From: an uncultured Actinomycetes bacterium
Lineage (GTDB): Bacteria; Actinomycetota; Actinomycetes; Mycobacteriales; Jatrophihabitantaceae
Assembly: GCA_963737785.1 (NCBI GenBank)
Contig: CAVTTS010000010.1
Location: forward strand, 248,127 to 312,126
Length of the DNA stretch: 64,000 nucleotides
Direction of reading: 5' to 3'
Every line of letters begins with the position of its first letter. Positions within the stretch are counted from its first letter, which is position 1. Under the pieces are notes generated by a model. That model saw nothing but the letters and a program-made list of their open reading frames with translations. It did not search any database and was not told the DNA's origin. Position numbers and translations under genes: made by a program. This document shows, one piece after another, positions 2,763-30,595 of the stretch.

Positions 2763-3703
2763 CGGGCATCCTGGCCGTGGCGGCCCCGCGGGGTGGCGGC
2801 CGCGGCCCGCTGTTGGCGGCGCTGCTCACGCCGCGACGGTGTGGGCGGCCCGGGTTCCGGCAGCGCCGGCAGCGGCGAGTAGGGGCCGGCCGGGACGGGT
2901 TCGGGCGCGGGCGCATAGCCGGCCGGCGCGTAGGCGACGGGGACCGGCGGCCGGACGAAGTTCGCCAGGGTCGCGACCATCGACTGGCCCGACCGCACGA
3001 GCAGCGTGCGCTCCGGACGGCTGACCGGACGCCCGTCGAAGATGCCCGCCCCGACGCGGTCGGTCGCGAGGTGGCCCAGGAACTCGGCTCCGGGCACGTC
3101 CTCGCGGATCGTGGCCACCGCCCCCGCGACGTCGCGGCTGTTCGGTGGCGCCTGGACGGCCATGCCGAGCAACGGGGCGCGGCCGCTCGTCCCGACGACG
3201 GCCGGAGCGAGATTGTGCAGGCGCGAACGCGTGCTCACGACACTCGACACGCTCGTCCCGAGCACGCAGACGGCGACGTCCGAGGCCTGGACGATCGGCA
3301 TCAGCGGCGAGCGCGAATCGACCCGCCCGACATCGACGATGACGTCGTAGCCCTCGAGGTTGCGGAACGCGTCGGCCAGAACGCTCCAGAGCTGGCCGCC
3401 GGCGTGGCTCTGTTCCGGACCGGAGAGGCCGACGATGACCTCGCCACCGCCGGCGACGCTCTGGGCGTGCTCGAGCAGGACGTTCGGGTGCAGTGTCCGG
3501 CGGGCCAGCGGCAGCAAGGTGAGCATCCCGCGGGTCAGGTCGAGCGGCTGGCCGTACGGGTTCGACAGGCGCAACCCGACGTCGCCGCCGACCGGGTCGC
3601 AGTCGACGAGCAGCGCCCGCCCCGGCCACAGCGACGCCGCCAGCATCGCCGCCGTGGTGGTGCCCGGGGCGCCCTTCGCCGAGAAGAAGCAGACAACGCT
3701 CAC
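2759..3703 (-). CDS. TadZ/CpaE-like ParA/MinD-type ATPase-like pilus assembly protein (ssd-like)
   Basis: N-terminal deviant Walker A FFSAKGAPGTTT. Lies immediately upstream of cpaF with a 4-nt overlap. Same arrangement as the mycobacterial tad locus. Confidence 0.65.
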   Translation of the reverse strand: MSVVCFFSAKGAPGTTTAAMLAASLWPGRALLVDCDPVGGDVGLRLSNPYGQPLDLTRGMLTLLPLARRTLHPNVLLEHAQSVAGGGEVIVGLSGPEQSHAGGQLWSVLADAFRNLEGYDVIVDVGRVDSRSPLMPIVQASDVAVCVLGTSVSSVVSTRSRLHNLAPAVVGTSGRAPLLGMAVQAPPNSRDVAGAVATIREDVPGAEFLGHLATDRVGAGIFDGRPVSRPERTLLVRSGQSMVATLANFVRPPVPVAYAPAGYAPAPEPVPAGPYSPLPALPEPGPPTPSRREQRRQQRAAAATPRGRHGQDAR

Positions 3704-4434: not shown

Positions 4435-4574
4435 CTAAACCTCCGTCATACAAGGCTGGCCTGGTCAGGTTACCCAGTCCCCCCGAGGCCCGCCGATCGG
4501 GGCATATCGGGCGACGCCACTCGTCCGGTCTCTGGCCCGCCACTCGTTGGATCTGTGGCCCGCCACTCGTTCGG

Positions 4575-5681
4575 TCAGTGGTAGGTGAACGTGTATTTGA
4601 GCGACGCCGCGAAGTTCCCGGCCTGGCCGGGTGTGACGTCGAGTTTCATCGTCACGTCGTAGGCGGCGGTACTGGTGCCGGCGAGTGTCTTCGTGACTCG
4701 CTGGCCCGCGGGGGCCGCGAAGATCGACTGGACAGCGACCGGATCGACGCCGAGCAGCGGGGCCGCGGCGAGGGCGTCCCGCTCGACGGCGGCCACACTC
4801 GAATCCGCGACGGAGAAGACCGTGCTGACCGGCGCGGCGCTGTCGGCCGCACTGTCGTCGGCCGACCGGGCCGAGGTCGACGCGGCGGAGGTCAGCGGCT
4901 GTTCGAGGGAGCCGCCCGGCAGGGTCAGCGCGAACGTCAGGGTCTGCCCCCAGGGCGGCTGGATGTAGGAATCCGAGTAGCCGTCGAGCATCCCGACGTC
5001 CGCTCGGTCAGGACGCCGGGTCAGGTCGAGCGCGAACCTGCCGTCGCTGACGACCTTGTCGATCGCCGCGTTGTGGAAGTAATCGATCTGGATCACGTAC
5101 TGCGCGGTGACATCCCCGTTGTCGCCGTCGGACAGTTCGACATCGAGCGACAGCCAGTCGTCGACCAGGCCGTGCAGCACCCGCTGCTGCGGAACGACGA
5201 CCCCGGTGCCGACCTGGGGCAGCACCTGCTCGATCTCGGCCGCGGACAGGCCGAGGATCGAGGCGTCGGCCAGCAGGCTCGTCCGGGCGCTCTCGGCGTC
5301 GTCGAACGTGCGGGAGATGTCGAACCACTTCGGGGTGTGCGTGTAGTTCTTGTCCTGCGCGCCGCCGGCGGCGTCGCTCGCGGCGGTCACGTCGAACGCC
5401 GGAATGACGATGGTCCCGCCCGGCAACACCGCCTTCGTCTGCAGCATCGGTCCACTGCGTTGGTAGGAGCGGTAGTTCCGATCGGCGGCGAAGCCGAAAC
5501 TCGCCCGGGTCGGACGGGTCGTGAAGTCGAGCGTCAGCGCGTTGCCGTGGACGATCGAAGCCGGCTGGTTGTCGGTGTTGCGGCCCTGCGTCATGCACCC
5601 TCCGAGCAGAGATATGGCGGCCACCACGACGAGGGCCGAGACCGCGCGAACAACACTCGCCCGGTTCTCACGGGAAGCCAA
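4575..5681 (-). CDS. Lipoprotein of unknown function
   Basis: 368 aa. Signal peptide plus lipobox LLGGC. Its start overlaps the stop of the upstream 630-aa gene (5668-5681), consistent with translational coupling. Confidence 0.6.
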   Translation of the reverse strand: MASRENRASVVRAVSALVVVAAISLLGGCMTQGRNTDNQPASIVHGNALTLDFTTRPTRASFGFAADRNYRSYQRSGPMLQTKAVLPGGTIVIPAFDVTAASDAAGGAQDKNYTHTPKWFDISRTFDDAESARTSLLADASILGLSAAEIEQVLPQVGTGVVVPQQRVLHGLVDDWLSLDVELSDGDNGDVTAQYVIQIDYFHNAAIDKVVSDGRFALDLTRRPDRADVGMLDGYSDSYIQPPWGQTLTFALTLPGGSLEQPLTSAASTSARSADDSAADSAAPVSTVFSVADSSVAAVERDALAAAPLLGVDPVAVQSIFAAPAGQRVTKTLAGTSTAAYDVTMKLDVTPGQAGNFAASLKYTFTYH

Positions 5682-7560
5682 TACTTACGCCCCCGCCGAC
5701 GCTGATGTTCCAGTCCTCCAACAGGTTCTTGACCAGCTGCGGCCAGCGGTTGGCCAGCCGCTGCTGCTCGATGCGGGAGTCGACCGACGAGGCGACGATC
5801 TGGCGGACCTCGTCCGGGTTGTCGGCCAGCAGCTTCTGGTAGGCGGGCAGCGTGTCGTTGGTGACATAGTCCCAGCGGGCGTTCTTGTCGGTGATGTTGA
5901 AGTCGGGCAGGGGCAGCGAGAGCGAGCCGTCGACCGTCTCGTGCACGAACGGGAACGGCTCGACGGTCACCGACGCCGAGATCGTCAGCGGCGAGTACTG
6001 GGCCGGCGTCTTGGTGCCCGGGATCGACGCCGACCCGATGACGGTCATGAGGTAGGTCATGCCCTCGCCGATCGGCCCGTCGTGGTTGCGCATGTCGTCG
6101 TACTGCTTGTTGATGATCTGGTTCTGCTCGCGCGACAACAGCAGCTTGTTGCCGGCCGCGACGTTGGCCGGCGTGCCTGAGTCGATCAGCTGCCAGGCCT
6201 GATCGGCGGGGCCGTCGATGAGCCCGGCGGCGTACATCTCGTCGATCGCCGCCGTTCCGCCATTCACGTAGGCTTCGTGCATCGACGCCTGGTCGAAGAA
6301 GATGTGCTTCTGCATGGCCAGGAACTTCTGCTCGAACCACTGGAACTCGGCGGCGCTCATGTTGCTGACTGCACCCATCGCCTGCAGCTCGGGCGGCAAC
6401 GCGCCCCGCAGCCAGCTCGGCACCTTGTTCAGCTGGCCGCCCAGCGCGCCGGCGAGGTCCTTGAACATGTTGATGTCGAGAAACCCGGCCGCGAACGACG
6501 GGCCGATCATGTTCGCCATGCCCGCCCAGGTCAGGTTCGGGTTGTTCAGGAACAGCTGCCCGTAGAAGGTGTAGACCGCCGAGATCGTCGCGCGGTTACC
6601 GTCCGTCCCGGCCGCGGGATCCCAGCCGTTGAGGTCGATGCCGGCCGCGACCGCTGCTTTGACCGCCCAGTACTGTGCGAGCAGCGCCGAGTAGCGGACG
6701 GGCGGAATGCCGTCGGCCCGCGCGTCGTCGAGCAGGGCCTGCAGGATCGCGGGATCGGTCGTCAGCGTGGTCACCGGCCCGCCCGGCAGCTCGCCGTCCT
6801 TGTTGTCCTCGACGATGTCGAGGATCTTCTCGGCGGCCGCCATCGCCGGCGCCATCATCGACCACGCCTGGGCCGTGGTCAGCGTGCCCGCGGCGGCCTG
6901 GCCCTGCAGCCCGATAACTCCGTACGCGGCGTCGACCCGGCGGCCGATCTCGTCGAGCGGCACGCTCGAACCACCGGGCAGGATGCTGTCGGTCTCGGCG
7001 TCGATGGCGGCGGCCAGCTTCGATCCGAGCGAGTTCAGCGACGACTTGGCCAGCAGCGCCTCGTTGACGAGCAGCCCCTGCTGCCGGGCCGCGTGCTGGT
7101 AGATCGTGTCCTGTTGGTCGGACTGCGTCGGCGGCAGCGACCGGGCCAGCGCGTCGGCGTTCTGCTCGATCGAGTCGTATTGCCGTTTGAGCCCGGCGAG
7201 CGTCTCGCAGGTACTGGTGAACTGCTTGGCGTACGCCGAGAGCAGCTGCGACACCGTCCCGCTCGCCGAGATGACCGCTTCGAGCTCGACCTGGATGCCG
7301 AACGAGGCGGTTTGGAAGTCCGTCGAACGAGTGCCGTGCCAGAGCGCGACAGCGGTCGCGATCGCCGACTTCACGGTGCCGGCGTCGGTCGTCATCTGGG
7401 CGGACGTGGTGCCGAACGTCCGCGCCGCGCCGGCCAGCGCGCCCGCATCGCCCGAGGGCGGGTCGAAGACGTCGCTCATCCACGTCCTCGCTGCGCTGCG
7501 GGCGCGGTCGAGGCTTCTCGCGCGCTGCACCGATGATTCGCTCGCTCGGCGCTCGCTCAT
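5668..7560 (-). CDS. Large hypothetical protein with a WXG100-like N-terminal helical hairpin (possible T7SS-substrate-like or Tad-associated protein)
   Basis: 630 aa. The N-terminal ~100 aa are helical with a central W-H-G motif (AVALWHGTRSTDF). The rest is Ala-rich with no TM segment. Its start overlaps the stop of the small upstream ORF by 4 nt. An alternative start is Met28 at about 7479. Confidence 0.5.
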   Translation of the reverse strand: MSERRASESSVQRARSLDRARSAARTWMSDVFDPPSGDAGALAGAARTFGTTSAQMTTDAGTVKSAIATAVALWHGTRSTDFQTASFGIQVELEAVISASGTVSQLLSAYAKQFTSTCETLAGLKRQYDSIEQNADALARSLPPTQSDQQDTIYQHAARQQGLLVNEALLAKSSLNSLGSKLAAAIDAETDSILPGGSSVPLDEIGRRVDAAYGVIGLQGQAAAGTLTTAQAWSMMAPAMAAAEKILDIVEDNKDGELPGGPVTTLTTDPAILQALLDDARADGIPPVRYSALLAQYWAVKAAVAAGIDLNGWDPAAGTDGNRATISAVYTFYGQLFLNNPNLTWAGMANMIGPSFAAGFLDINMFKDLAGALGGQLNKVPSWLRGALPPELQAMGAVSNMSAAEFQWFEQKFLAMQKHIFFDQASMHEAYVNGGTAAIDEMYAAGLIDGPADQAWQLIDSGTPANVAAGNKLLLSREQNQIINKQYDDMRNHDGPIGEGMTYLMTVIGSASIPGTKTPAQYSPLTISASVTVEPFPFVHETVDGSLSLPLPDFNITDKNARWDYVTNDTLPAYQKLLADNPDEVRQIVASSVDSRIEQQRLANRWPQLVKNLLEDWNISVGGGVSIGFP

Positions 7561-7853
7561 TCGGCGCGCATCCGTCCGCCCCCGGCGACCGCGAGGTCGG
7601 TGCCGCCGTTGGCGGCCAGCGTCCCGACGGCTTGCAGCTGCGTTTCGATGTCACTGGCCGACCGGGCGGCCACCGCCCCGAATCGGGCCAGCGCCGCGGC
7701 CGCGGCGGCGGATCCCACGGATCCCGAGCCCGTCGACCCCGCGGAGCTCAGGGCGCTGGACGCGCTGCCGACCGTCGCGCCGGCCGAACGCAGCGGACCC
7801 GCGACGCCGCGGATCGCATCCGGATCACCGCCGACCGGGCTGCCCATGGACAC
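7557..7853 (-). CDS. Small Ala/Gly/Ser-rich helical protein, hypothetical, co-transcribed with the 630-aa protein
   Basis: 98-aa ORF whose stop overlaps the downstream start (ATGA). Low-complexity composition. This could be a small secretion-partner-like protein or non-coding. Confidence 0.35.
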   Translation of the reverse strand: MSMGSPVGGDPDAIRGVAGPLRSAGATVGSASSALSSAGSTGSGSVGSAAAAAALARFGAVAARSASDIETQLQAVGTLAANGGTDLAVAGGGRMRAE

Positions 7854-7865
7854 AGGCTACCCGCG

Positions 7866-7935
7866 AATCTTGATGCGTATGCGTCGCTATAGCGGAGTAT
7901 GCGTATCGGCGTCCGGACGCTGATACGCCGAAGGG
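7866..7935. repeat. Isolated copy of the GATAC/GTATC palindromic repeat family (a near-perfect palindrome GCGTATCGGCGTCCGGACGCTGATACGC)
   Basis: Sequence cttgatgcgtatgcgtcgctatagcggagtatgcgtatcggcgtccggacgctgatacgcc shares motifs (gatgcgtatgcgtcg, gtatcagcgtcc) with the array at 16468-16870. Confidence 0.55.
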
Positions 7936-7968
7936 CCGGCCCCCGCTGGTGCGGGAGCCGGCCCTTCG
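7931..7968 (-). terminator. Putative intrinsic terminator downstream of rpoC
   Basis: GC-rich inverted repeat agggccggcccccgc...gcgggagccggccct just after the rpoC stop. The downstream tract is only weakly U-rich. Confidence 0.35.
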
Positions 7969-7980
7969 AGCGATCTGCGA

Positions 7981-11889
<3,909 letters not shown>

Positions 11890-18850: not shown

Positions 18851-19240
18851 TTACTTGACCGTGACGCTGGCGCCGGCACCCTCGAGGGCCGCCTTCGCCT
18901 TCTCGGCAGCTTCCTTGTTGACCTTCTCCAAGACGGTCTTCGGGGCACCGTCAACGAGGTCCTTGGCCTCCTTGAGACCGAGGTTCGTGAGGGTGCGCAC
19001 CTCCTTGATGACCTGGATCTTCTTCTCGCCGGCACCCTCGAGGATGACGTCGAACTCGTCCTTCTCCTCCTCGGCCTCGGCCGGGGCGGCCGGGCCCGCG
19101 GGACCGGCAGCGGCAGCCGCGACCGGCGCGGCGGCGGTGACGTCGAAGGTCTCCTCGAACTGCTTCACGAACTCCGACAGCTCGAGCAGCGTCATTTCCT
19201 TGAACGCGTCGAGCAGGTCGTCAGTGGACATCTTCGCCAT
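18851..19240 (-). CDS. rplL: 50S ribosomal protein L7/L12
   Basis: 129 aa. Canonical L7/L12 sequence ([26 protein letters not shown]...[12 protein letters not shown]). Confidence 0.97.
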
Positions 19241-19296: not shown

Positions 19297-20058
19297 TTAC
19301 TCCGCCGGCTCGGCGGGAGTTTCGGACGATTCGGCGTCGGTGGCCACGGCCTCCGGTGCCTCGGAAGTGCCGGCCTCGGCGTCAGCCGGGGCCTCATCGG
19401 CAACCGGAGCGTCTTCGGCGCCCGCGTCGACAACGGGAGCGTCGTCGGCGGCCGCGTCGACAACCGGAGCGTCGTCGGCAACCGCATCAGCGGCGTCCGC
19501 GTCGACAGCCGGTGCTGCCGCAGCGGGTTCCGCGGCGACAGCGACAGCCGGCTTCTTCTCTTCGAGGGCCTTGGCCAGACGTGCCATCTGCGACAGCGGC
19601 GCCTGGAACAACCCGGCCGCGCGGGACGGGAGCGCCTTGAGGGCTCCAGCCAGCTTGGCGAGCAGGACCTCACGGGACTCGAGGTCGGCGATCTTGGCAA
19701 CCTCGGCGGCGGTCAGCGACTTGCCGTCGAGGACACCGCCCTTGATCACCAGGAGCGGGTTGCCCCGCGCGAACTCGCGCAGGCCCTTCGCGGCCTCGAC
19801 CGGGTCGCCCTTGACGAACGCGATCGCGGTCGGCCCGACGAGCAGGCTGTCGGCGATCGTCACTCCGGCCTCGGCGGCTGCCCGCTTGGTCAACGTGTTC
19901 TTGACGACGGCGTAGGTCGTGTCGCGTCCGAGGGCCCGGCGAAGCTGGGTGACCTGCTTGACCGACAGTCCGCGGTACTCGGTGATAACCGCGGCGGACG
20001 ACGTGGCGAAGTGATCCGTGATCTCGGCGACCGCGGTGATCTTCTCTGTGCTCGGCAT
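19297..20058 (-). CDS. rplJ: 50S ribosomal protein L10 with an unusual acidic Ala/Asp/Pro-rich C-terminal extension
   Basis: The true start is [17 protein letters not shown] (ATG at 20058 with a GGAGGA RBS). The longer track ORF is upstream read-through. About 253 aa versus the usual ~175 aa, with DDAPVVDA-type repeats. Confidence 0.9.
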
Positions 20059-20350
20059 GTATCCTCCTCTCACATGGTCGGCGCTGGCCGATCGAGCGAG
20101 TTCGGAACAACAAAAAACGCCCCGGCGCAGGGCGCACGGGGCGGCAAGCATCACGCATACCGAACCGTCCAACCTGCGCGGGTCGTTCCGGCGCTCCGGA
20201 ATCATTCGGTCACGTGTGCGCACGTGACGGCCAGCGGTCTTCGGTGGATCGCTGACAAGGTTACGCACCCGTCGGCGACCGAGCCAAATCGCCGCCACCC
20301 GAGTCACTTTTGGCGGCGCAACCTCATATGCACTGCGCTGCCGCCCCACG
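20059..20350 (-). promoter_or_regulatory. rplJ-rplL 5-prime leader, the likely L10(L12) autoregulatory leader and promoter region
   Basis: A ~290-nt non-coding gap upstream of rplJ, as is typical for L10-leader-containing operons in actinobacteria. I did not verify the structure. Confidence 0.4.
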
Positions 20351-20357
20351 CGATGGG

Positions 20358-22649
20358 TCAGGCGTCAGCGGCGAGGTCGGTCGCGTAGGTCAGGCCGGCC
20401 GTCGACGAATACGGCTCAGCCCGCAGGGCGCTCGCAAACACGTCGAACGCCGTGGCCGGGTCCATGCTGACGCAGCCGGACGTCGGGCTCAGGCAGGCCG
20501 CCTGCGAGGTGAGCACGCCGGCGAAATCGATGTGATCGGACGCAGTCGCACCGGCCTGGTCGATCGCGGCCCACTGACCGGCCTGGACGGGCAGGTAGAT
20601 CTGCGGCAGCGCGATGATCCGCGTCGGCGCCAGCCCGTGGGCCAGGTCGTAGTAGTTCTGCTGCGTCCAGGTCTTCGAGGCCTGGTTGTCGTCGAGCACG
20701 GTGTCGCAGTTGGCCGCGGTCGAGGTCGGGCAGCCATCCGCCGATCCGTTCTCGACCAGCCGGGCCGGCGTCGACGCGAGGTAGCTCGTCACCCACTGCT
20801 CGGCCTGCGCTTCGCTGCTGCTGAAGCCGGCCTCGATATCGGCCGCACCGACCACCTCGAGCCGCGACGATCCGTGCGCCCGAGCCGGCCCGACGACCTG
20901 CGTCGCCCAGTCGGCGCCGCGCTGCGGGGCCGGGTAACTGGAGAAGTCGCCGTCGTTGTTGGTGCCCAAAGCGATCACGGCCGTCGCGGTCGCCGGTTGG
21001 CAGGACGAGTAGCCGTCGAGGTACGCGTCGATCGCGGCCACCAGCTGCGCGTAGGTCAAGCGAGTGGCCGTCCCGCTCAGCAACACCCCGGGCGTCGTCG
21101 CCGACAGCGGCGCCCGGACCGTCTGCGCTCCGACGTCGAGCAGCACGATCGAGTCGCCGGCCGGACCGCCGATGCCGGCATCGGACGTTGCATCGCTGCA
21201 GCCGAGGCGATTCATCGCAGGCGCGTCGGCCGCCGTTCCCTGCAACGCGCGCAGGTAGTGGCTGGTCGATCGACGGGGGGCCGAACGGCTGAGCACGTAG
21301 CCGACCACGTCGATGGTGATCGTCGCGGTGTCGGCCGATCCGTTGAGCACGCTGAGTTCGCCGTCGGCGCTGACCGGGACCATCACGAGGCTCTGCGTCG
21401 TGACGCCCGGTGAGTACTGGACGCTGGCTGTCTCCGGCGGCGAACCGGCCCCGGCGTACAGGCTCAGGTAGCCGCCGCTCACGCCTGCGGTCACCGTCAC
21501 ATCGGCGAGGACGGCGGCCACATCGGTGCTGGGTAGCGCGCCGACCCCGAGGACGTGGGCGGACGTCGCGCCCAGCGGCGCGACCGCTGACGTCAGGGCG
21601 CGCGCGGCCGGGACCGCCACGACGCTGCCCGCGGCGGTCGCGGTTCCAGCCGACGTGTAGCCCGTGACGACCACCGCGACATCGACCGGCGCGGTGGAGT
21701 CGGTGGCGATGACGATCCGCCCGTCCGGGCCGAGCGGGACGAGTGCGGAATTCGACGCCGACTGGCCGGCATCGAAGTGGACGGCCGATCCGCTGGGATG
21801 AGCGCCGCTTGCGTAGCCGCTCAGGTCACCGGCCGCGGACGGGTTGAGCGCGGTCAACTCGATCGAGACCGCACCACCGGCGGGAATCCCGTCGACGCCG
21901 GCGAGCTGGATCGCTCGGGGCGTGGCGCTGGTGATCGGCCCGGAGCCGTCGATGGCCGTATCGAGCACGGTGTCGCGCGCGACCGGCGCGAAGCCGCCGT
22001 TCGGCAAGTCGGTCGCGCCCGCAGCGGCGCTGGACGCCATCGATCCGCCCGCGAAGTAGCCGGTGACGTCCGCGTACACGTGGGTCGCGGCCGGCGACCC
22101 GTTGTGGACGTCGACCAGTCCGTCCGCCCCGATCGCGACGATCACGAGTCCGGACACGCGGGCCGGGTTCGGTCCGAGTTCGGCCGGCGTCAATGTCGTC
22201 ACGGGATCCGCGGCATTCGGATCGTCGGCCGAGAACACGACCGCGCCGGCCGCGGCACTGTTCGTGACGGCGACGGAGAGGACCACCGCCGAAGCGCCGG
22301 TGCGCGGGACACCCGCGACGCCGGCCACCGCGAAGGAGGCGTACGCGCCCGCCGAGATCGGCCCCTGGGCGCCGACATCGACTCGAGTATCGAGCACGGA
22401 TGTCGGCGGCAACGACGTGAAGCTGCCGGGCAGTAATGCCGTAGTGGCGCCGGGGCTCGAACCGGTCGTCACGCTGTCCACGGTCGCGGCGTTCGACGAC
22501 GATCCGCGCGGGCCGACAACGCCGGAACCGGCGGCACCGGCCGTACCGGCCGCACTCGCCACCGAGTCGACGGCCGCGATCACGACGAGGGCGGCCAGCA
22601 TCGACGACGCGAACGCGCGCAGCCGTCGCCTCCCGGGCCCCGATCCCAT
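20358..22649 (-). CDS. Secreted protein with three tandem ~100-aa beta-rich internal repeats plus a ~290-aa C-terminal domain, unknown function
   Basis: 763 aa. N-terminal signal with an RRRLRAF motif (Tat-like). Three modules share the pattern ...LDTR...G..GVP...AV.L.V....GYF. The C-terminal domain is Cys-containing and non-repetitive. Confidence 0.65.
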
Positions 22650-22702
22650 GTGTGCAGAATACTCCTACACGTCAACTTTGCACTTCACGAAACGGACAGA
22701 AT

Positions 22703-25202
22703 TTATACGCCGAACGTGACGAATGGCGTGGGTTCGTCGACCGACGACACCGCCTCGGCAAGGGCCTCCGCCGAGTCGCGACCCACGGCGAGGCGCCGGT
22801 GGTAGCCGAGCATCGCCTCGGACGCGGCATCGTCTCCGACTCGCGCGACCCCGCTCACGACGGTGCGCGAACCGAGGTGAAGCAGGACGCTGGTCAGCCC
22901 CAAAGCCTCATCGCCGGGACGAATCGTCGCCATCCCCAGCTCGCACGCGGACAACACGACGTGTGGCGCCGCGTGGTCGAGTTCGTGCGCGAACATCGGC
23001 CCGTCCGCCATCCGGATCGAGCTGAACAGCGGGTTCTCCGTCTGGTGCTGACCGTGGGCGGCCACGTGCACGGTCGCGGCCGTCGCCATCGCGGCCGCGA
23101 GTTCGGCCCGAGTCGCGCCGGCCGACACCGTCGCGCCGAGTCGGATGCGGCCGATCTCGGCTACCTCGTGATCCGCGCGGCGCAGGTCGGGACCGGCGAG
23201 CGCGATCAGCTCGCCACCGGCCGACCCGGCGGCGCGCGCCGTCACCCAGGCCGTCGCGGAGGGAGTGACGACGACCGGTTCGCCGCGCCGCGACGGGATC
23301 GACGTCCAGGGCAGGGCAGCCAGCAGGCCGGTCGGCACGACGACGAGCCGGTGGCCGCCCGCGCGCAGCGGGCGCACCAACAGCTCGTCGAGCCTCACCA
23401 GCGACCGGGAGAGTGATGCCGACGCCGCCCCGCGGATCGCGGCCGGCAGCCGCTCGTAGGCGAGCACGTCGAGGTCGGCGCGAGCTCGCCGGACCAAGGC
23501 ATCGACGTCGTCGGCGTCCCCGAGCTCGTGCAGAGTCACGCGTCGCGCATCGAGTCGCAGCCCGTGCAGACGTCCACCGACCCGGACGTACGCCACCAGG
23601 ACGGCGTCGGCGTCCGCGACCGCGGCCCGGATCGCGGCCGACGATGCCGGTTGCTGCACGTGACCGCCGCCGGGCAGCGTCCAACTACGGCCTTTGATCT
23701 GTCGCTCCAACTCGGCCCGCCGCGGCTGCAAGGTGGGCGCCTGGCTGGCATCGGCCCGGACGGTCTCGACGAGCTGGCGCAGTTCGGCCAGCAGATCGGC
23801 CGTCTGCGGATCGGCCGGCGGCCGGATCGCCGACAAGCGGCTCGAGACGGCCCGGCCACGCTCGATTGCGGCCAGCACGGCCGTCGGCGACCCGCCGTCG
23901 ACCGCCATCGAGACGTCCAGCTCGGCGAGCCGCGAGCCGTGCGCGGCACTCGCGGTGCGCAGGTCCATACCGCCAAAGCTGGCCTGGTAGGTCGCCAGCT
24001 CGTCGAGACCGGCGCGGACATGTCGGCGCGCCGAATCCCGCCGGCCGGCCGTCTCGTCGAGCCGGGCGCGTACGTACCGATCGTGCAACCGGACCGAGAT
24101 CGGATCACCGGCCGCCGGCGGGTCGGCGACGAGCTCGGCCGCCGCGTCGAGCTGACCGACGGCCAGCAGGCACTCGGCGGCGACCAACGCGGCCGTTCGG
24201 GCGCGGCCCGACAATCCCTGCGTGCGAAGCTCGGCCGCAGCCGCAGCGCCACCGGCGCGAGCCGCGCGGGCGGACGACCGGTCGACAGATCGCCTTGGAG
24301 CAGGACCAGCTCGGCGTCTCGCGCCAGCGATCGTTGCCGCGCCGCCGGAATCGATCGCGGGCCCGGCCGGCGAACCGGCGAGCGGCCGCGACGTCGCCGG
24401 CCAGCAACGCGCACTCGGCTCGGGCCAGTTCGGTCTCGGCAACGTCCTGGGCCAGCCGCTCTTCGCGAAGATGGCGCCGGCGCGGGCCAGGGCGTTGTCG
24501 GCGTCGCGGGCCAAGCCGGCATCGAGCAGGACACGCGCCCGATCGAGCAGCGGAATGCCCTCGGAAACCCCCTCGCCGTACACCAGGGCCTCGTCCATGA
24601 CGGCCAGCGCGCGGGCAGATCGCCAGCGACGAACTCGGCGTACCCGAGGTTGTGCAGCGCCTTGAACCGCCACATGTTGACGCCGCGGTCGGCGGCGAAG
24701 TCGGCGGCCCGCGTGAACATCTCGCGGGCCGGTAGCACTTCGCCGCGCAGCAGTCGGATGTAGCCCGCGTTCAGCAGGATCGAGTAGTGGTCGTTGTCGT
24801 CGGCGGATCCGATGATCGCGATCGCGGCGTCGCTGCTGTCCTGCGCCGACGCGAGGTCACCGCTGCGGAAGGCGATCAACGCGTGCTGGCTGTGCGCTCG
24901 GACCGTCAGAGCTCGGGTCGTCGAGGTGGGACGAGATGCCGTTTCGCCTCGGTCAGCGTGACCAGACCGCGCTCGGCACCGAAGACCTCAGCCTCGGAAT
25001 AGGCGCGACTGATCAGAATGGCCGCCAGGACCCCTTCGACCGCCGATGGCTCGGCCTCGCCCGGGCTCGGCGTGATCAGGGCCTGGGCCCGGCGCAGTAT
25101 CGAGAGCGCGCGGATCGGATGCCCGTGGTTGTGCTCAGCGACCGCGCGGGTCTGCAGCTCGATGGCCCGATCGAGCAGAGCCGTCGCAGAACCACGGGTC
25201 AT
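22703..25202 (-). pseudogene. TPR-repeat CHAT-domain (caspase-like) protease gene, interrupted by at least two frameshifts
   Basis: Three consecutive reading frames (25202-24906, 24879-about 24640, 24673-22703) encode TPR-like helical repeats and then a CHAT domain with catalytic His and Cys motifs (HVAAHGQH ... VVLSACELG). Junctions are at about 24900 and about 24640. Confidence 0.7.
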
Positions 25203-25230
25203 GGCGTCAGGTTGTCATACTCGCGCGGCG

Positions 25231-25746
25231 TCAGAGTTCGAGCGACGGCGTGATCACCGGCGGACGCCCGCTGTCGTCGGGCGCTCGCAGCACGAACTGG
25301 GCCAGTCCGCGGGGCACGTCCTCGAAGACGAACCGGCCGTCGGCGTCCGCGACCGCGTGCAGGACGCCGCCGACGATGCGCAACTCGACCTCGAGCCCCG
25401 CACCGGGCGCGGCCCAGCCGTCGAGCCGGACGCGCTCGGCGCCGGCCGCGGTGATCGTCACCATCGTCGTGAGACTCGGGCTCGTGAACGTGACGGTCTG
25501 CACCTCCGTCGCACCGAGCTCACCGCCGCGCGCTCCGAGCAACTCGGACTCCAGTCGCTGCAGCTTCGCGATCTCGGCGTGCAGCGCGTCGAGGGTGATC
25601 CCGAACTGGATGCGCTCGATGAGCCCGTCCGGGACCGGATCGGCCAGGTCGTACAGCGCCGCCACACGACGCAGCGTTGCGACGTCGTCGGCGTCGAGCT
25701 GGCCGGACGCGAGAGTCTCCACGCTCGGACGGTCGTTGTCGGACAT
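25231..25746 (-). CDS. Hypothetical cytoplasmic protein translationally coupled to the ECF sigma factor (candidate anti-sigma or regulatory partner) with an Ig/carboxypeptidase-regulatory-like C-terminus
   Basis: The real start is MSDNDRPS, whose ATG overlaps the sigma factor stop (TGATG). About 171 aa. No TM segment and no HxxxCxxC zinc anti-sigma motif. The track ORF extends upstream in an overlapping frame. Confidence 0.5.
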   Translation of the reverse strand: MSDNDRPSVETLASGQLDADDVATLRRVAALYDLADPVPDGLIERIQFGITLDALHAEIAKLQRLESELLGARGGELGATEVQTVTFTSPSLTTMVTITAAGAERVRLDGWAAPGAGLEVELRIVGGVLHAVADADGRFVFEDVPRGLAQFVLRAPDDSGRPPVITPSLEL

Positions 25747-26330
25747 CAGGCCTCCCATTGAGGATCGTCGATCAGTCGAGCACGGAGTTTGGCCAGGCAT
25801 CGGCCGCGGGTCGGGCCGATGCTGCCCACCGGCATACCCAATGCCGCCGCCAGCGTCCCGTAATCGGGTCGGTCGGAGAACGCGATGACGCGCAGGAGTT
25901 CGCGACACCGGACCGAGAGCGTCGAGATGTGTTCCCAGAGACGCGATTGCTCGGACTCGCGCAGCACCGTGGGTTCGGGGGACGCCTCCAAGGAGGCCAC
26001 CAGGTCGTCGGGCGCGAAGTCGTGCGGGTCGGCCCGCTTGTCGACCCGGGCGACCCGCCACGCCTCGCGGCGCGCGGTCACGATGAGCCACTGCAGAACC
26101 GCCCGCGAGTCGCTGATCGATTCGCTGTTGCGCACCAGCGCGAGCCAGGCCGCCTGGACGACGTCTTCGGCCGAGCCCTGGGAGATGTTCTGCGCCCGAA
26201 CGGTGTGCCACATGATCGGCGTCAGGAGCGCGACGAGCTCGCCCATCTTCGCCTCGTCCCCGGCGCGGAAGCCGGCGAACAGCGCGCCCGCGCGGGCGGC
26301 CAGGGTGTCCGGGAGCGGTTCGGCGATCAT
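25746..26330 (-). CDS. ECF (extracytoplasmic function) RNA polymerase sigma-70 family factor
   Basis: About 195 aa starting at MIAEPLPDTL. Region 2 (DVVQAAWLALVRN) and region 4 HTH (RELLRVIAFSDRPDYGTLAAALGMPVGSIGPTRGRCLAKLR). Its ATG overlaps the upstream S8 peptidase stop (ATGA). Confidence 0.8.
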   Translation of the reverse strand: MIAEPLPDTLAARAGALFAGFRAGDEAKMGELVALLTPIMWHTVRAQNISQGSAEDVVQAAWLALVRNSESISDSRAVLQWLIVTARREAWRVARVDKRADPHDFAPDDLVASLEASPEPTVLRESEQSRLWEHISTLSVRCRELLRVIAFSDRPDYGTLAAALGMPVGSIGPTRGRCLAKLRARLIDDPQWEA

Positions 26331-28123
26331 GCCGGACGCACCATCGTGGGCACCTGCGCGCTGACGGCCGTCCAGGCCCGGTTCACGCAACTGGCCGGGT
26401 CGATCGCGTCGAGACCGCCCGCTTCGAGGATTGCCTCGACGATCTGGCCGGCCAGGATGGGCGCCGAGAACGAGGTTCCGCTCCAGGTGCCGAATCCGCT
26501 CGCGAAGTTGTCGGGGTCGATCGTCGAACGAACGCCTTCGCCGGGCAGGTAGAGCCGCTCGCTCGCCTGGTCGGCACCGTTCATGGTGATCGGGAAGGTG
26601 CTCACGATCGCGGACCCCATGCGATGGCAGCTGACCCACTCGCCGGCGTTGCTGAATAGGGCGATCGTCTGGCCGTCCGGGTTGAGGGCGGCGACGCTCA
26701 TGATCGGAACCTCGTCCTTGCGCGGAGTCTTGACCAGGCCATCGGCCCACGGCGTGAACGCCGCCGGATACATGCAGCGGAACGTCGCGTCATTCCCGGC
26801 CGCGACGACGATCGCGACACCGCGCTGGGCCAGCGCTTCGAGCGGGGCCAGCAGCAGATGATCGAAGAGCGAATCCTCGGGCTGTTCGTGGTAGTACCCG
26901 AACGACATCGAGACGACGTCGATCAGTTCCTCGGGACGGCCGAGCTGCTGGGCTTCGGTCTGGCGGATGAGCAGCGCGTACGCGGCGTGCATCAGGTCGG
27001 ATTCGGCGATGACACCGTCGGCCCCCATGATGCGAACGGCCAGGATGTTGGCATCCGGGCAGAGCTGCCGGATCAAACCGGCGATGAAGGTGCCGTGTCC
27101 CGAGTCGGTGTCGAGCTCGCCGAGCAACGGGCTGTCGACCACGCCCGTTCCTTCGGAGTTGCCGGCCGCACCGGCGATGCCCATGGGTTCCCCCGCAGCG
27201 GTCGGAGTGCGGTCGACGATCCCGTCGGGGAGCCACGGGTGCTCGCCGGCGCCGGTGTCGAGAACCGCGACGACCGGACGCCGCATGCCCAGATCGTGGC
27301 GACGGTGCGGCTCGCGGCCGATCCACGCCACCGGCTCGCGACCGCCGTGGCCGGGGGCGCCGTACTCGACGACGCCCGAGCCGTTCGCAAACGGAGACCC
27401 GTTCGCGAAGGGCGAGCCGTTCGCGAACGGCGAGCCGTTCGCGAACGGAGCCGCGAACATCAGGTGGTCCAGACCGACTTCCTGAACGCTGGCCGACGGC
27501 GAGTCACGCACGATGCTGCGGAATGTCTGCAGAACCGGCCACGAATCGATCGGCGGGGCCGGCTCGTTCGACACCGCGACCAGTCGAACGCGGTTGACCG
27601 GGGTCGGATATTGCTCGATCGAGTTCGTCCGCGCGTACTCGTGGATCTTGCCGTGTTCCTCGTCGACCTCGAGGCGAAGGCCGTGCTTCTCGGCGGCCGA
27701 CTTCAGCGCGTTGTAGCTGTCGCCGCCCGGCACCGCGCCACGCACGAGCAGCTGGTCGGCCACATAGACCGTCGAACGAGGCTTGGGATCGCCGGGGATC
27801 TGCACGGCGGTGAGCGGATCGAGGACGCGAGCGTTGTATTTGACGAGGACGTCGTAGGGCGGCGAGATCACCACGACATCGTTCAGCGGCTCCGGGCGTT
27901 GGCAACCGTCGGTCGGCGGGTTGACGTCGGGCATGGTGACCTCGTTACTCGGGGATGCGGCAGGTGCGTCTGGGAGCGTAGGGCCGTTCGGTCCCGCGCC
28001 ACCAGGGTCGTGTGTGCTCATCGTCCGTAATGAGCGCACTGTCGGCGCCCTGATACACGCGCCCGCCGATGTATCACCGCAAACGCCGGCCGCTCCTCCA
28101 AACGTGCGGCGTTCGCGTCGCAC
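26327..28123 (-). CDS. S8 family subtilisin-like serine peptidase, apparently intracellular, with a four-fold GSPFAN repeat linker
   Basis: Catalytic triad motifs VAVLDTG (Asp), HGTFIAGLI (His) and GTSFSAPILAG (Ser). No signal peptide. The likely start is MSTHDPGG at about 28021. There is a ~190-aa N-terminal domain before the GSPFANGSPFANGSPFANGSPFANGS linker. Confidence 0.85.
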   Translation of the reverse strand: MRRERRTFGGAAGVCGDTSAGACIRAPTVRSLRTMSTHDPGGAGPNGPTLPDAPAASPSNEVTMPDVNPPTDGCQRPEPLNDVVVISPPYDVLVKYNARVLDPLTAVQIPGDPKPRSTVYVADQLLVRGAVPGGDSYNALKSAAEKHGLRLEVDEEHGKIHEYARTNSIEQYPTPVNRVRLVAVSNEPAPPIDSWPVLQTFRSIVRDSPSASVQEVGLDHLMFAAPFANGSPFANGSPFANGSPFANGSGVVEYGAPGHGGREPVAWIGREPHRRHDLGMRRPVVAVLDTGAGEHPWLPDGIVDRTPTAAGEPMGIAGAAGNSEGTGVVDSPLLGELDTDSGHGTFIAGLIRQLCPDANILAVRIMGADGVIAESDLMHAAYALLIRQTEAQQLGRPEELIDVVSMSFGYYHEQPEDSLFDHLLLAPLEALAQRGVAIVVAAGNDATFRCMYPAAFTPWADGLVKTPRKDEVPIMSVAALNPDGQTIALFSNAGEWVSCHRMGSAIVSTFPITMNGADQASERLYLPGEGVRSTIDPDNFASGFGTWSGTSFSAPILAGQIVEAILEAGGLDAIDPASCVNRAWTAVSAQVPTMVRPA

Positions 28124-28339
28124 ACCATTCGCGAGAAGGTCACGGCGACCCGGCAGTCGCCTCGACCTGGGCGGCTGGGCTCGGGCGCGGTTTCGGAATC
28201 GGGGGGTTCCGTCCGCAAGGGGGCTCGACCCGGCCGCAGCGTCTGGGACCGGCCGCCCGACGGGGGTCGCCCGCGCAATCGGGCGTGGCGCATCGAGCGC
28301 CCGGAGCGGCCGGCTCCCGGACGAACCAGCGCGGAGAAC

Positions 28340-28376
28340 GACGAGGCCGCCTCGGGGTTGTCCCGAGGCGGCCTCG
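28340..28376 (-). terminator. Putative terminator hairpin downstream of rplA
   Basis: Perfect inverted repeat acgaggccgcctcgggg ttgt cccgaggcggcctcgt, 20 nt after the rplA stop. Confidence 0.4.
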
Positions 28377-28397
28377 TCGTTTCTGTCCAGCGAGTGA

Positions 28398-29117
28398 CTA
28401 CGCCGTCGGCGCGTCCTCGAGCATGTTGCGCGTGCGGTTCGGGTCGACCGGGATGCCGGGGCCCATCGTCGTGGAGAACGTGACCTTCTTCAGGTACTTG
28501 CCCTTGGACGAGGACGGCTTGGCCCGCACGACCTCGTCGAGCGCCGCCGCGTAGTTCTCGACGAGCTGCTGCTCGCTGAAGGAGGCCTTGCCGATGACCA
28601 GGTGCAGGTTGGACTGCTTGTCGACGCGGAAGCTGATCTTGCCGCCCTTGATGTCGGCGACGGCCTTCGCGACGTCCGGCGTGACCGTGCCGGTCTTCGG
28701 GTTCGGCATCAGACCGCGCGGACCGAGGACGCGCGCGATGCGGCCGACCTTGGCCATCTGGTCGGGCGTGGCGATCGCGGCGTCGAAGTCCAGGTAGCCC
28801 GCCTGGATCTCGGCGATCAGATCGTCGCTGCCGACGCGGTCGGCGCCGGCGGCCTCGGCCTCGGCGGCCTTGTCGCCGGTCGCGAAGACGATCACACGCG
28901 CGGTTTTGCCCGTGCCGTGCGGCAGGCTGACCGTGCCGCGGACCATCTGGTCGGCCTTGCGCGGGTCGACGCCCAGGCGCAGGGCGGCCTCGACGGTGCC
29001 GTCGAACTTGGTGGGCGAGGTTTGCTTGGCCAGGTTCGCGGCCTCGAGCGGCGAGTAGATGCGCTCGGCCTCGATCAGTTCGGCGACCTTGCGGTAGCCC
29101 TTGCTCGGCTTGCTCAT
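28398..29117 (-). CDS. rplA: 50S ribosomal protein L1
   Basis: The true start is [10 protein letters not shown] (Met7 of the track ORF). Canonical L1 sequence. Confidence 0.95.
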
Positions 29118-29230
29118 GGGGTGCTCCTCATACATCCAGTGGTGTTAGCGGACGCCGACCATCGGCGTCCTCCCACGCTTTCGGTAGTGCCGTCGCGACG
29201 GTGAGTCGGCGACGGATCGATGCGTGTCGC

Positions 29231-29662
29231 TCAGTCGGCGACGGTGATGCCCATCGAGCGGGCGGTGCCGGCGATGATCCGGGCCGCGTGCTCGACGTCG
29301 TTGGCGTTCAGGTCTTCCATCTTGGCCTCGGCGATCTCGCGCAGCTGGGCCTGGGTCACCTTCGCGACCTTGGTCTTGTGCGGTTCGCCGCTGCCCTTTT
29401 CGATGCCGACCGCGGCGAGCAGCAGACGCGCTGCCGGCGGGGTCTTGGTGACGAAGGTGAACGAGCGGTCTTCGTAAACGGAGATCTCGACCGGGACGAT
29501 CTGCCCACGCTGCGACTCGGTCGCCGCGTTGTACTGCTTGCAGAACTCCATGATGTTGACGCCGTGCTGGCCGAGCGCGGGGCCGACCGGCGGGGCCGGG
29601 TTGGCCAGGCCCGCCTTGATCTGCAGCTTGATGACTGCGGCGAGCTTCTTCTTGGGAGGCAT
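29231..29662 (-). CDS. rplK: 50S ribosomal protein L11
   Basis: 143 aa, [18 protein letters not shown]... canonical L11. Confidence 0.97.
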
Positions 29663-29689: not shown

Positions 29690-30595
29690 CTAGATCTTGG
29701 AAACTTGACTGAACGAGAGTTCGACCGGCGTTTCGCGGCCGAAGATCGACACGAGCACCTGCAGCTTCTGGTGCAGCGGATCGATCTCGCTGATGGTGGC
29801 CGGCAGGGTGGCGAACGGGCCGTCCATGACGGTGACGGACTCACCCACCTGGTAGTCGACCAGCTCGATCTTCGGCTTCTCACCGGCACCGACGCCCCTG
29901 CCGGAACCGACGGCCGCGGCCTTGCGGCTGGCCGGGGCGAGGATCTTGACGACCTCGTCCAGGCTCAGCGGGGACGGGCGCGACGTGGCCCCGACGAAGC
30001 CGGTGACGCCCGGGGTGTTGCGGACGGCGCCCCACGACTCGTCGTTGAGGTCCATGCGCACCAGGATGTAGCCCGGGAACACCTTGCGCTGGACCTGCTG
30101 GCGCTTGCCGTTCTTGATCTCGATGACTTCTTCGGTCGGCACCTCGACCTGGAAGATGTAGTCCTCCATGTCGAGGGAGGAGATGCGGCTCTCGAGGTTG
30201 GTCTTCACCTTGTTCTCGTAGCCCGCGTACGAGTGCACGACGTACCAGTCGCCGAACTCCGTGCGCAGCTTGTGACGAAGCGCCTCGACCGGGTCCTCGT
30301 CATCGTCACCGTCACCCTCGGATTCGCCGGCTTCCACCGCGGCCAGGCCGGCCTCGACGAACTCGGCGTCGGCGGCATCGGTGGCGTTGCTCCCCGAGAT
30401 CAGGGCGGCCCGGAAATCGGCGTCCTCGTCAACGGTCGGAGTGGTCGGGCCGAGGTCGTCGATGCTGACCTCGTCGTCGGCGAGCGAGGACGGCTCGTTG
30501 TCGTCGGCACCGAGCATGCGGGCGGCCGAGGCGAAGTCAGTGGGATCGTCGCTGTCGGCGGGGCGCGCGTCTTCGGCGGGGTCGAAGTCGGACAC
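29690..30595 (-). CDS. nusG: Transcription termination/antitermination factor NusG with an acidic N-terminal extension
   Basis: 301 aa. NGN and KOW domains ([14 protein letters not shown] ... [11 protein letters not shown]). The long Asp/Glu-rich N-terminus is typical of mycobacteria-like actinobacteria. Confidence 0.95.

Follow-up and report, generated by a model that had tools for sequence, protein, structure and literature searches.

Several systems have been described in which a protease acts on an inhibitor-bound sigma factor. In Craspase, the tetratricopeptide repeat (TPR)-CHAT protease Csx29 cleaves the anti-sigma-like protein Csx30 in a flexible loop and thereby frees a sigma factor of the extracytoplasmic function (ECF) type, and CASP-sigma drives promoters in its own Craspase locus (PMC10028731). 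In a second system, PCaspase, once activated by SAVED-CHAT, cuts a sigma factor as well as an inhibitor (bioRxiv 10.1101/2023.06.23.546230). A third, CalpL-CalpT-CalpS, comprises a SAVED-Lon protease, an anti-sigma factor, and an ECF sigma factor, as summarized in the same preprint. Here, we describe a set of four genes located in a 64,000-nt stretch of DNA from an uncultured member of the Actinomycetes (contig CAVTTS010000010.1; hereafter the window), which is high-GC actinobacterial DNA (GC 0.65-0.75). The genes encode an S8 subtilase (S8), an ECF sigma factor, a 171-amino acid (aa) protein of the anti-sigma position (the partner), and a TPR-CHAT caspase-like protease (the CHAT protein). Coordinates refer to the window and to its minus strand, unless stated otherwise.

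We propose, with what we judge to be an even chance of being right, that the four genes form a cytoplasmic switch in which a CHAT/S8 protease cascade cuts a soluble anti-sigma factor of a new type, frees the ECF sigma factor, and amplifies the operon. The TPR-CHAT protein would serve as sensor and initiator protease, and the S8 would be a latent pro-subtilisin locked by its prodomain, with a tandem-peptide 'barcode' at its junction that may engage the CHAT protein at its hypervariable N-terminal TPRs or be processed by it. The partner would be a soluble anti-sigma factor whose N-terminal helices hold the sigma factor and whose Ig-like domain offers a handle to the protease. Once the cascade fires, the partner would be cut at an invariant linker arginine, and the released sigma factor would transcribe the leaderless operon from TGTATCA-N16-CTCCT, creating positive feedback, and would also act on a second promoter copy, which would serve lineage-specific cargo or a small RNA. 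Here we infer the binding of sigma factor and partner, the cleavage partners, the order of the cascade, its trigger, and its output.

The likeness to Craspase is that genes for a TPR-CHAT protease, an ECF sigma factor, and a soluble inhibitor of non-canonical type stand together, the inhibitor role of the partner being our proposal. In contrast to Craspase, neither Cas7-11/gRAMP, a CRISPR array, Csx31, nor a Csx30 homolog was found among the block genes or their conserved neighbors, and neither the block genes nor the families that are conserved in the 80 homologous loci described below (within +/-10 kb of the sigma factor gene) include a Cas protein. Csx30 comprises 565 aa and the partner 171 aa, and their folds differ. 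The CHAT protein of the window shares with Csx29 the generic CHAT core only (21 bits over ~90 residues with the NCBIfam model CAS_csx29, whose cut-off is 300). Further differences from Craspase are that the S8 zymogen with its peptide repeats constitutes a second, integral protease, and that the trigger cannot be target RNA. SAVED-CHAT/PCaspase (PCc-sigma, PCi) resembles the proposed cascade in its initiator/executioner logic, one protease cleaving the other to switch it on, and the gene set in combining two proteases with a sigma factor and a small protein that looks like an inhibitor. However, its sensor is a SAVED domain binding cA3 (cyclic triadenylate) and not TPRs, its second protease is a C14 caspase and not an S8 enzyme, its sigma factor is itself cleaved, and its kinase and CRISPR/CBASS context are absent here. 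CalpL-CalpT-CalpS, as far as the preprint summarizes it, has in common with the proposed mechanism a soluble cytoplasmic protease that sets an ECF sigma factor free by cutting a soluble anti-sigma factor, but it uses a single Lon-type protease that is activated by cyclic oligoadenylate and is CRISPR-associated. By analogy, our module would work like the Craspase, SAVED-CHAT, and CalpL systems, yet it falls outside all three, since it lacks Cas7-11/CRISPR, Csx30/Csx31, SAVED, and Lon and since its Csx29 score stays far below the cut-off.

Scans of all block proteins against Pfam, NCBIfam, PADLOC, and PHROGs returned generic domains only and no named system; an earlier note on this DNA, made from the sequence alone, had named assignment to a known system as an outcome that would count against its proposal. 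In PADLOC-DB v2, the sole match was IetS to the S8 core (E 0.005, 13 bits), and the corresponding NCBIfam model IteS gave 16 bits against a cut-off of 900. The literature searched, among it a paper that reclassifies ECF sigma factors and a preprint of 2025 on protease effectors, contained no description of the four-gene set. The view of the earlier note that no characterized system has this architecture thus stands for the exact gene set, whereas the underlying logic has the characterized analogs outlined above.

To collect homologous loci, one genome per GTDB species was scanned with the sigma factor protein, which yielded 80 loci (L001-L080). All belong to Actinomycetota and comprise Jatrophihabitans-like and 'Pseudonocardiales' metagenome-assembled genomes (MAGs), Lapillicoccus, Phycicoccus, Oryzobacter, Ornithinimicrobium, Microlunatus, Nocardioides, Aquipuribacter, and others. 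One contig (L013, CAZZZW010000258.1) is labeled as a MAG of Oscillatoria nigro-viridis; judging from its high-GC sequence of actinobacterial character, it is probably mis-binned.

Linkage was counted by tblastn with the window proteins in the 54 loci that offer enough flanking DNA. On the same strand beside the sigma factor gene, S8 is found in 47 of them and S8 together with CHAT in 41, while the partner adjoins the sigma factor in 42; the Nocardioides loci missed by tblastn contain a diverged partner open reading frame (ORF) of the right size and with the right motifs. Two gene orders occur, S8-sigma-partner-CHAT (29 loci) and sigma-partner-S8-CHAT (18 loci), and in L030, L036, L044, and L047 the module is split into two operons, with the S8-CHAT pair ~6 kb away on the opposite strand. 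Because the linkage survives two gene orders and an occasional operon split, a functional link among S8, sigma factor, partner, and CHAT is supported, in agreement with the initial suggestion that these genes belong together. When predicted neighbors within +/-10 kb of the sigma factor gene were clustered across the 80 loci, these four families were the only broadly conserved ones, the remainder being lineage-specific synteny, and no fifth conserved protein appeared.

The sigma factor (194 aa; 25746-26330) matches Pfam Sigma70_r2 and exceeds the cut-off of the TIGR02937 sigma70-ECF model (46.4 versus 42.9 bits), which upholds its first designation as an ECF sigma factor. As expected of an ECF sigma factor, it is ~190 aa long and has sigma-2 and sigma-4 regions only; the nearest solved relatives, CnrH and Rhodobacter sphaeroides RpoE, are weak matches. 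The S8 stop codon overlaps the sigma factor start as ATGA, and the sigma factor stop overlaps the partner start as TGATG, both as originally read.

The partner (25231-25746) is the candidate soluble anti-sigma factor. Its AlphaFold2 (AF2) model (predicted local distance difference test, pLDDT, 88) contains helices at aa 9-14, 19-35, and 42-70 (together aa 9-70, 25537-25722), a disordered stretch at ~73-78, and a seven-stranded, Ig-like/CarboxypepD_reg-like beta-sandwich (aa 82-171, 25234-25503). This model, together with weak CarboxypepD_reg matches in 60 of 67 family members, agrees with the C-terminal fold suggested earlier. In the linker, G71 and R73 (R73 codon 25528-25530) are invariant in close homologs, and the arginine is kept in every correctly framed lineage, in the contexts LGAR, LVGVR, LGVR, ALAR, and PAIR. 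The combination of helices, a disordered linker with an invariant arginine, and a beta-sandwich suggests a cleavable tether, and the arginine, lying between the helices and the globular handle, may be a site of regulated cleavage. A profile search of 1.84 billion cluster representatives (50% identity) recovered 1338 relatives of the partner with almost no annotation; among the 150 relatives listed, nearly all are stand-alone proteins of ~155-185 aa. Since the Ig-fold protein IPI inhibits the intracellular subtilisin Isp1 of Bacillus (PMC3901451), the Ig-like domain might, by analogy, act on S8, which we regard as a lead only.

A candidate operon promoter lies at 28030-28057 and consists of TGTATCA (28057-28051), a 16-nt spacer, and CTCAT (28034-28030). 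The S8 start codon (ATG, 28021) follows CTCAT by 8 nt, a distance from a -10-type element that implies a leaderless mRNA and also supports the start of the 564-aa S8; across the loci, the start codon mostly lies 6-8 nt after the -10 element, and the operon transcript appears to be leaderless. Of 51 regions upstream of the first gene, 27 contained GTATC-N17-CTCC in an unbiased dyad count, and with spacers of 15-19 nt allowed, 37 had a GTATC/CTCC dyad, whichever gene comes first. Over 1.34 Mb of loci, the motif, with the consensus (G/A)TGTATCA(G)(G)-N-CTCCT, is nearly confined to operon starts. It precedes S8 or the sigma factor 64 times, and over all motif instances GTATC and CTCC are spaced by 17 nt in 76 and by 18 nt in 21. 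The operon motif of the window has CTCA in place of CTCC, as do those of L030, L044, and L047. Such a motif upstream of the operon is a classic hallmark of autoregulation by an ECF sigma factor and would be recognized by the co-encoded one. In one locus with two S8 copies (L023), each copy has its own promoter motif upstream.

The motif also precedes the detached S8-CHAT operons of L030, L044, and L047, and a sigma-type promoter in front of the protease genes is what would be expected if the proteases were outputs only. The sigma factor and the partner would then answer another signal, and S8 and CHAT would be effectors of the regulon, serving stress- or infection-induced bulk proteolysis, dormancy, or cell death, without the partner being their substrate. 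The role of executioner is plausible for a pro-subtilisin-like zymogen as well as for a caspase-like protease, and L050, L052, L057, and L059 retain the sigma factor and the partner without nearby proteases. However, this explanation accounts neither for the invariant linker arginine and the conserved Ig-like domain of the partner nor for the tight translational coupling of S8 and the sigma factor, and in the characterized CHAT/sigma and Lon/sigma systems the protease stands upstream of the sigma factor (PMC10028731; bioRxiv 10.1101/2023.06.23.546230). We consider it somewhat unlikely, and retain the switch, in which the proteases act on the partner, as the preferred reading.

S8 (564 aa; 26327-28021; Pfam Peptidase_S8 5e-17) has its catalytic residues at D255 (27257-27259), H309 (27095-27097), N410 (26792-26794), and S517 (26471-26473). 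All four are invariant in 73 S8 sequences, and the enzyme looks catalytically competent. In the AF2 model (pLDDT 79.8, predicted TM score 0.83), residues ~50-190 (27452-27874) form a confident beta-alpha-beta-beta-alpha-beta domain resembling an I9 prodomain, which packs on the catalytic domain (aa ~245-564), while residues 194-229 form a disordered linker (pLDDT <50). Judged by the hydrophobicity of their sequences, no signal or transmembrane (TM) segment is predicted in S8, the sigma factor, the partner, or CHAT. The lack of a signal peptide in S8 had been stated before and holds, since its N-terminus is not hydrophobic; secreted pro-subtilisins, in contrast, carry a signal peptide. Together with the model, this portrays S8 as an intracellular, pro-subtilisin-like zymogen with a prodomain of ~140 aa. 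Its homologs are annotated only generically as 'S8/S53 family peptidase', and it appears to evolve much faster than the partner, given that the best non-self database match is 53% identical for S8 and 79% for the partner. The closest parallel among intracellular enzymes is found in the intracellular subtilisin proteases (ISPs), in which an S8 catalytic domain is likewise kept latent by an N-terminal element, which in ISPs is a short extension and not a prodomain, and a proline-aromatic motif lies near the junction; the window S8 differs in having a full prodomain, as secreted subtilisins do, and its repeats share only the P-[FYH..] core with the ISP motif (PMC6220982). It differs from ISPs and pro-subtilisins alike in that its motif is tandem and species-specific and in that the gene is genetically wired to a sigma factor and CHAT.

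At the junction of the prodomain and the catalytic domain, S8 carries four tandem copies of the hexapeptide PFANGS (about 27377-27450; Tandem Repeats Finder period 18, 4.1 copies, 87% DNA matches), which corresponds to the (GSPFAN)x4 linker noticed earlier and is encoded by an 18-nt array. An alignment of 48 homologs showed that the repetitive character of the junction is kept and its sequence is not: units elsewhere include PYSGFT x5, PYVNGS x7, PFTHGS x4, PMVNGT x7, GAPYWT x5, QWGSVG x8, PLHSSN, and PYTGGH(V), and those of Nocardioides include PHNKPN, PHNEPN, PHNRPN, PHNRGN, PHNKPT, PHNRPT, PHNQPD, PHNQPH, PHNDPH, and PLNDPH. Perfect or near-perfect tandem units, in 3-8 copies, occur in 39 of 49 S8 proteins, with a period of 6 in 34, 7 in 4, and 11 in 1, and metagenomic relatives add 11-residue units (GVPYMGGGSVG, GNPYWHVPSAS) and 5-residue units (PYVAH, GYMGT). 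Common to the units is one proline followed by an aromatic, hydrophobic, or histidine residue. A conserved (S/E)xYGxPGxGGRxPV motif follows the repeats in the S8 homologs.

The copies within a gene are identical as peptides to a far greater degree than as DNA. In the window, 12 of 36 codon pairs compared differ, and all 12 differences are synonymous. Over all genes, 698 of 2169 intragenic codon pairs differ synonymously and 32 non-synonymously, a count biased against non-synonymous differences, because repeat detection allowed at most one amino acid mismatch per unit. About a third of the codon pairs thus differ silently, and 30 genes show no amino acid difference at all; within one gene arginine is written as CGT, CGC, AGG, and CGG, and within another serine as AGC and TCA. 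Silent codon differences combined with identical peptides indicate that the copies are held by selection on the peptide and do not stem from recent DNA duplication. Sister species differ in the unit, and they do so in all copies at once. Copy number can also change on very short timescales, as indicated by two Nocardioides S8 genes (L072 and L076) that carry PHNKPN x4 and x3, respectively, and are otherwise 100% identical in alignment.

Identical copies of a unit that diversifies fast are typical of multi-copy peptide precursors and pherotypes. The junction hexapeptides could accordingly be seen as cores that S8, CHAT, or both cut out to yield a signal or a product resembling ribosomally synthesized and post-translationally modified peptides, under control of the sigma factor, as in the Kex2-processed alpha-factor repeats or the cyanobactin precursors processed by S8 proteases. 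The identity of the 3-8 copies as peptides and the fast diversification of the unit between species speak for such a system, as does the placement of the repeats at the exact junction where subtilisins autoprocess. In L001, L005, and L010, moreover, a divergent promoter of the same type precedes a gene for a HopA1-family protein, and the HopA1 family supplies lyases in class V lanthipeptide pathways. Nevertheless, the four proteins all reside in the cytoplasm, the conserved neighborhood offers no exporter, modifying enzyme, or receptor, many homologs have 11-residue units or one copy of the motif, and no residue that could mark a cleavage site is conserved across units. We consider peptide production to be very improbable, and regard the repeats as more readily understood within the proposed protease cascade.

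In that cascade, the repeats would be read by the CHAT protein, and co-divergence was examined in ten Nocardioides loci and in nine Lapillicoccus-type loci with the other gene order. In Nocardioides, mean pairwise identity is 0.86-0.99 for the sigma factor, the partner, and the C-terminal ~600 residues of CHAT, but falls to 0.52-0.75 in the N-terminal ~200 residues of CHAT and lies at 0.53-0.90 over the length of S8. Repeat-unit distance correlates with distance in the S8 prodomain (r 0.81), the S8 catalytic domain (r 0.74), and the CHAT N-terminus (r 0.79, Mantel p 0.0002), and not with that in the CHAT core (r 0.06), the partner (r 0.00), or the sigma factor (r 0.17), these statistics resting on 9-10 related loci with non-independent pairs. 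In Nocardioides the S8 gene abuts the 5' end of CHAT, so that a swapped DNA cassette could explain the result; the relationship was therefore retested in the Lapillicoccus-type loci, where the sigma factor and the partner lie between S8 and CHAT. There, S8 catalytic distance correlates best with the CHAT N-terminus (r 0.94), and the partial correlation, with the sigma factor, the partner, and the CHAT core controlled, is 0.79. This pattern favors functional co-evolution of S8 and the N-terminal TPRs of CHAT. Charge complementarity between repeat position 4 (K/R versus D/E) and CHAT or S8 columns was considered and rejected, as the directions of charge are mixed and phylogeny confounds them; 28 CHAT columns separate the position-4 charge groups, all within the N-terminal 220 columns.

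The repeats might instead be an autoinhibitory pseudo-substrate lying across the S8 active site and not a ligand of CHAT, an account that departs from the proposed mechanism in one step and would treat the co-divergence of S8 and CHAT as shared diversifying pressure and not as contact. The ISP motif [LVI]-[IFLV]-P-[YFH] binds the active site, where its proline displaces the scissile bond (PMC6220982); S8 is likewise intracellular, and nearly every unit has a proline followed by F, Y, M, L, or H. However, the proline is preceded by small or polar residues, whereas hydrophobic ones precede it in LIPY/F, S8 already has a complete I9-like prodomain, and AF2 places no part of the linker in the cleft. 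The tracking of unit divergence with the CHAT N-terminal TPRs also remains unexplained by a pseudo-substrate, which we hold to be improbable. Contact between the repeats and the TPRs, as the switch would require, accommodates that tracking.

The CHAT gene (22703-25202, 833 aa after repair; Pfam CHAT 1.4e-26) encodes a TPR solenoid followed by the CHAT domain (22739-23404), the N-terminal 328 aa matching Pfam TPR_12 and TPR_MalT; a sequence search of the PDB with CHAT returned no match. The catalytic histidine (23054-23056) and cysteine (22943-22945; Cys754 of the repaired protein) belong to the H.A.HG and (S/A)AC(E/D) motifs, which are kept in nearly all CHAT homologs, and the protease looks catalytically competent. 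The earlier note had identified a TPR-CHAT protease with a frameshift. The identification is borne out by the domain matches, but the start lies at 25202, not at ~24879, and the gene is interrupted not by one frameshift but by six 1-nt indels, near 24930, 24909, 24615, 24463, 24316, and 24234. An independent assembly of run ERR11523676, a 1.6-kb Logan contig (L081) carrying an identical partner gene, is 99.6% identical to the window; the differences, six homopolymer indels of 1 nt and a single substitution, all fall within the first 1 kb of CHAT. Its CHAT N-terminus reads uninterrupted for 328 aa and is collinear with homologs (~52% identity to L002 over 320 residues), whereas the window sequence follows the same homologs only through the frame changes 3>2>1>3>2. 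Spliced to the C-terminal ORF of the window, it gives the protein of 833 aa; relatives usually have 818-900 aa. Since rpoB and rpoC in the window (7.4 kb) are intact, the errors are local. The indel cluster is probably an assembly artifact and the gene intact in vivo; a genuine pseudogene was judged unlikely, given six homopolymer indels against one substitution in 1.6 kb, the intact rpoB/rpoC, and an intact allele in the reads. Co-existing strains differing mainly in the CHAT N-terminal segment, with a blurred consensus as the result, are a plausible cause of the indels. All six indels (24234-24930) lie in the stretch encoding the N-terminal TPRs, which is hypervariable among related species, and the partner gene is clean.

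Classical ECF sigma factors are paired with anti-sigma factors of class I, whose anti-sigma domain (ASD) often binds zinc and which are usually membrane-anchored and subject to regulated proteolysis (RseA/DegS/RseP). Our module resembles such pairs in a seemingly autoregulated ECF sigma factor co-transcribed with a presumed inhibitor and in the proposed proteolytic release, and an ECF sigma factor, a promoter motif of autoregulatory type, and an adjacent, translationally coupled gene are indeed present. It differs from them in that dedicated, cytoplasmic proteases form part of the operon itself, and in that the partner lacks a TM helix and a zinc motif, as the earlier note had already stated. 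Several observations weigh against the mechanism. Across 67 members of the partner family no anti-sigma domain family is matched at E<=1, the model shows only three helices where a class I ASD has four, and the partner sequence contains no HxxxCxxC or other Cys/His zinc motif. The assignment of cleavage to the linker arginine finds no parallel in Craspase, where Csx29 cuts Csx30 between residues 427 and 429, beside Met427 and not after an arginine (PMC10028731). Six loci have S8 without a detectable CHAT nearby, and seven have neither S8 nor CHAT within 6 kb on the same strand. Some S8 homologs bear a single P-aromatic motif and no repeats, AF2 leaves the repeat linker disordered and docked nowhere, and the co-divergence samples are small. 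As to the biological role, the genes surrounding the module look like housekeeping genes and not like a defense island.

A more far-reaching version of the proposal holds that the TPR solenoid reads the species-specific hexapeptide barcode of S8 within a CRISPR-independent cascade, which may act as an abortive-infection or antiviral alarm and may also drive a sigma-dependent small RNA; we regard this version as unlikely. The hypervariable, sensor-like parts and the patchy occurrence of the module hint at a role in conflict or defense, whereas the housekeeping context and the lack of PADLOC matches give no hint of it.

In many loci the promoter motif occurs a second time, facing away from the operon or following CHAT. 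The second copy of the window, a divergent and perfect TGTATCA-N16-CTCCT on the plus strand (28070-28097), faces the 3' end of rplA, and no ORF lies behind it. What follows is a structured non-coding stretch (28100-28395, plus strand; 296 nt, RNA fold z = -7.35) that includes the hairpin GGAAUCGGGGGGUUCC with a G-run loop and closes with a bidirectional terminator, which rplA uses as well. The stretch could encode a small RNA that depends on the sigma factor, or be what is left of a divergent gene since lost. The HopA1-family proteins mentioned above (~240-280 aa; Pfam PF17914, 3.5e-15) are encoded between rplA and the module (L001:~4530-5650(-), L005:~2700-3456(-), and L010:~7150-8065(-)); the window has no such gene and retains the divergent promoter. 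In 11 Nocardioides loci (among L060-L080; e.g., L064:15120-15273), the second copy lies downstream of CHAT and is followed by a 120-nt non-coding element. Between these species the element is conserved at 95% identity, as against ~72% for their S8 proteins. One possible reading of it is a set of three hairpins, with a GGGGGA run within or next to each of their loops, and it extends into a convergent gene. Rfam gave no credible match for the window stretch or the Nocardioides element, and the idea of one RNA family across lineages was dropped, because a covariance model of the Nocardioides element was significant on its training set only.

Other genes accompany the motif or the module in single lineages. 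In L015-L017, the second copy precedes a ~290-aa protein that looks AraC-like by eye only, and various other genes occupy this position in other loci. A second, diverged paralog of the partner lies upstream of the module in L068 (7439-8100, plus strand), after a promoter-like motif of the CTCA variant. In Microlunatus parietis (L033:6735-8276, minus strand), a gene divergent from the module, with the start MATVKGLLVGIDDYGDPRNNLDSCVADV, has the look of a caspase (C14)-type protein, by eye only.

In the window, the block occupies the gap between rplA and rplJ, with the genes for S8, the ECF sigma factor, the partner, TPR-CHAT, and a 763-aa protein all on the minus strand. Reading along that strand, the order is nusG (29690-30595), rplK (29231-29662), rplA (28398-29135), the block, rplJ (within 19297-20349), and rplL (18851-19240), with rpoB and rpoC beyond rplL, so that the insertion between rplJ and rplA described by the earlier note is correct. 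As an island in a conserved gap, it is real in the window, but this placement is common to the 12 closest relatives only. Likewise, the co-directional block does contain five genes, but the conserved unit consists of four, since the fifth adjoins the module in only 2 of the 80 loci (L001 and L005). This fifth gene, 53 nt downstream of CHAT, encodes the 763-aa protein (20358-22649), which appears to be secreted or wall-associated; it is a clade-specific passenger and not a core member, and its role as a general output of the module was rejected on the same count. Its signal-like hydrophobic N-terminus and threefold repeat had been recognized before, but the repeats measure ~125-135 aa each, not ~100, and are too diverged for detection by BLASTP. 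Sequence searches of Pfam, NCBIfam, PADLOC, PHROGs, and the PDB returned no match. The triple-repeat region of ~380 aa recurs at ~27-38% identity in many large, otherwise unrelated secreted actinobacterial proteins, which carry FN3, PKD, amidase_2, M23, S8, or RCC1 domains, and it has the look of a repeat module for surface or wall binding that lacks annotation and a Pfam family.

So far, cytoplasmic protease-controlled sigma factors have been characterized as accessories of type III CRISPR systems. If the proposed mechanism is correct, the same protease-sigma logic would exist as an autonomous module across many soil actinobacterial lineages and would bring with it a soluble anti-sigma factor of novel architecture, a cascade whose second protease is an intracellular pro-subtilisin, and a perfectly repeated, fast-diversifying peptide junction that co-diverges with a TPR array. 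Such a module would provide a tractable model for the recognition of repeat peptides by repeat proteins and for the insulation of paralogous protease pathways. With four genes and one defined promoter, it is also potentially useful as an orthogonal protease-to-transcription switch.

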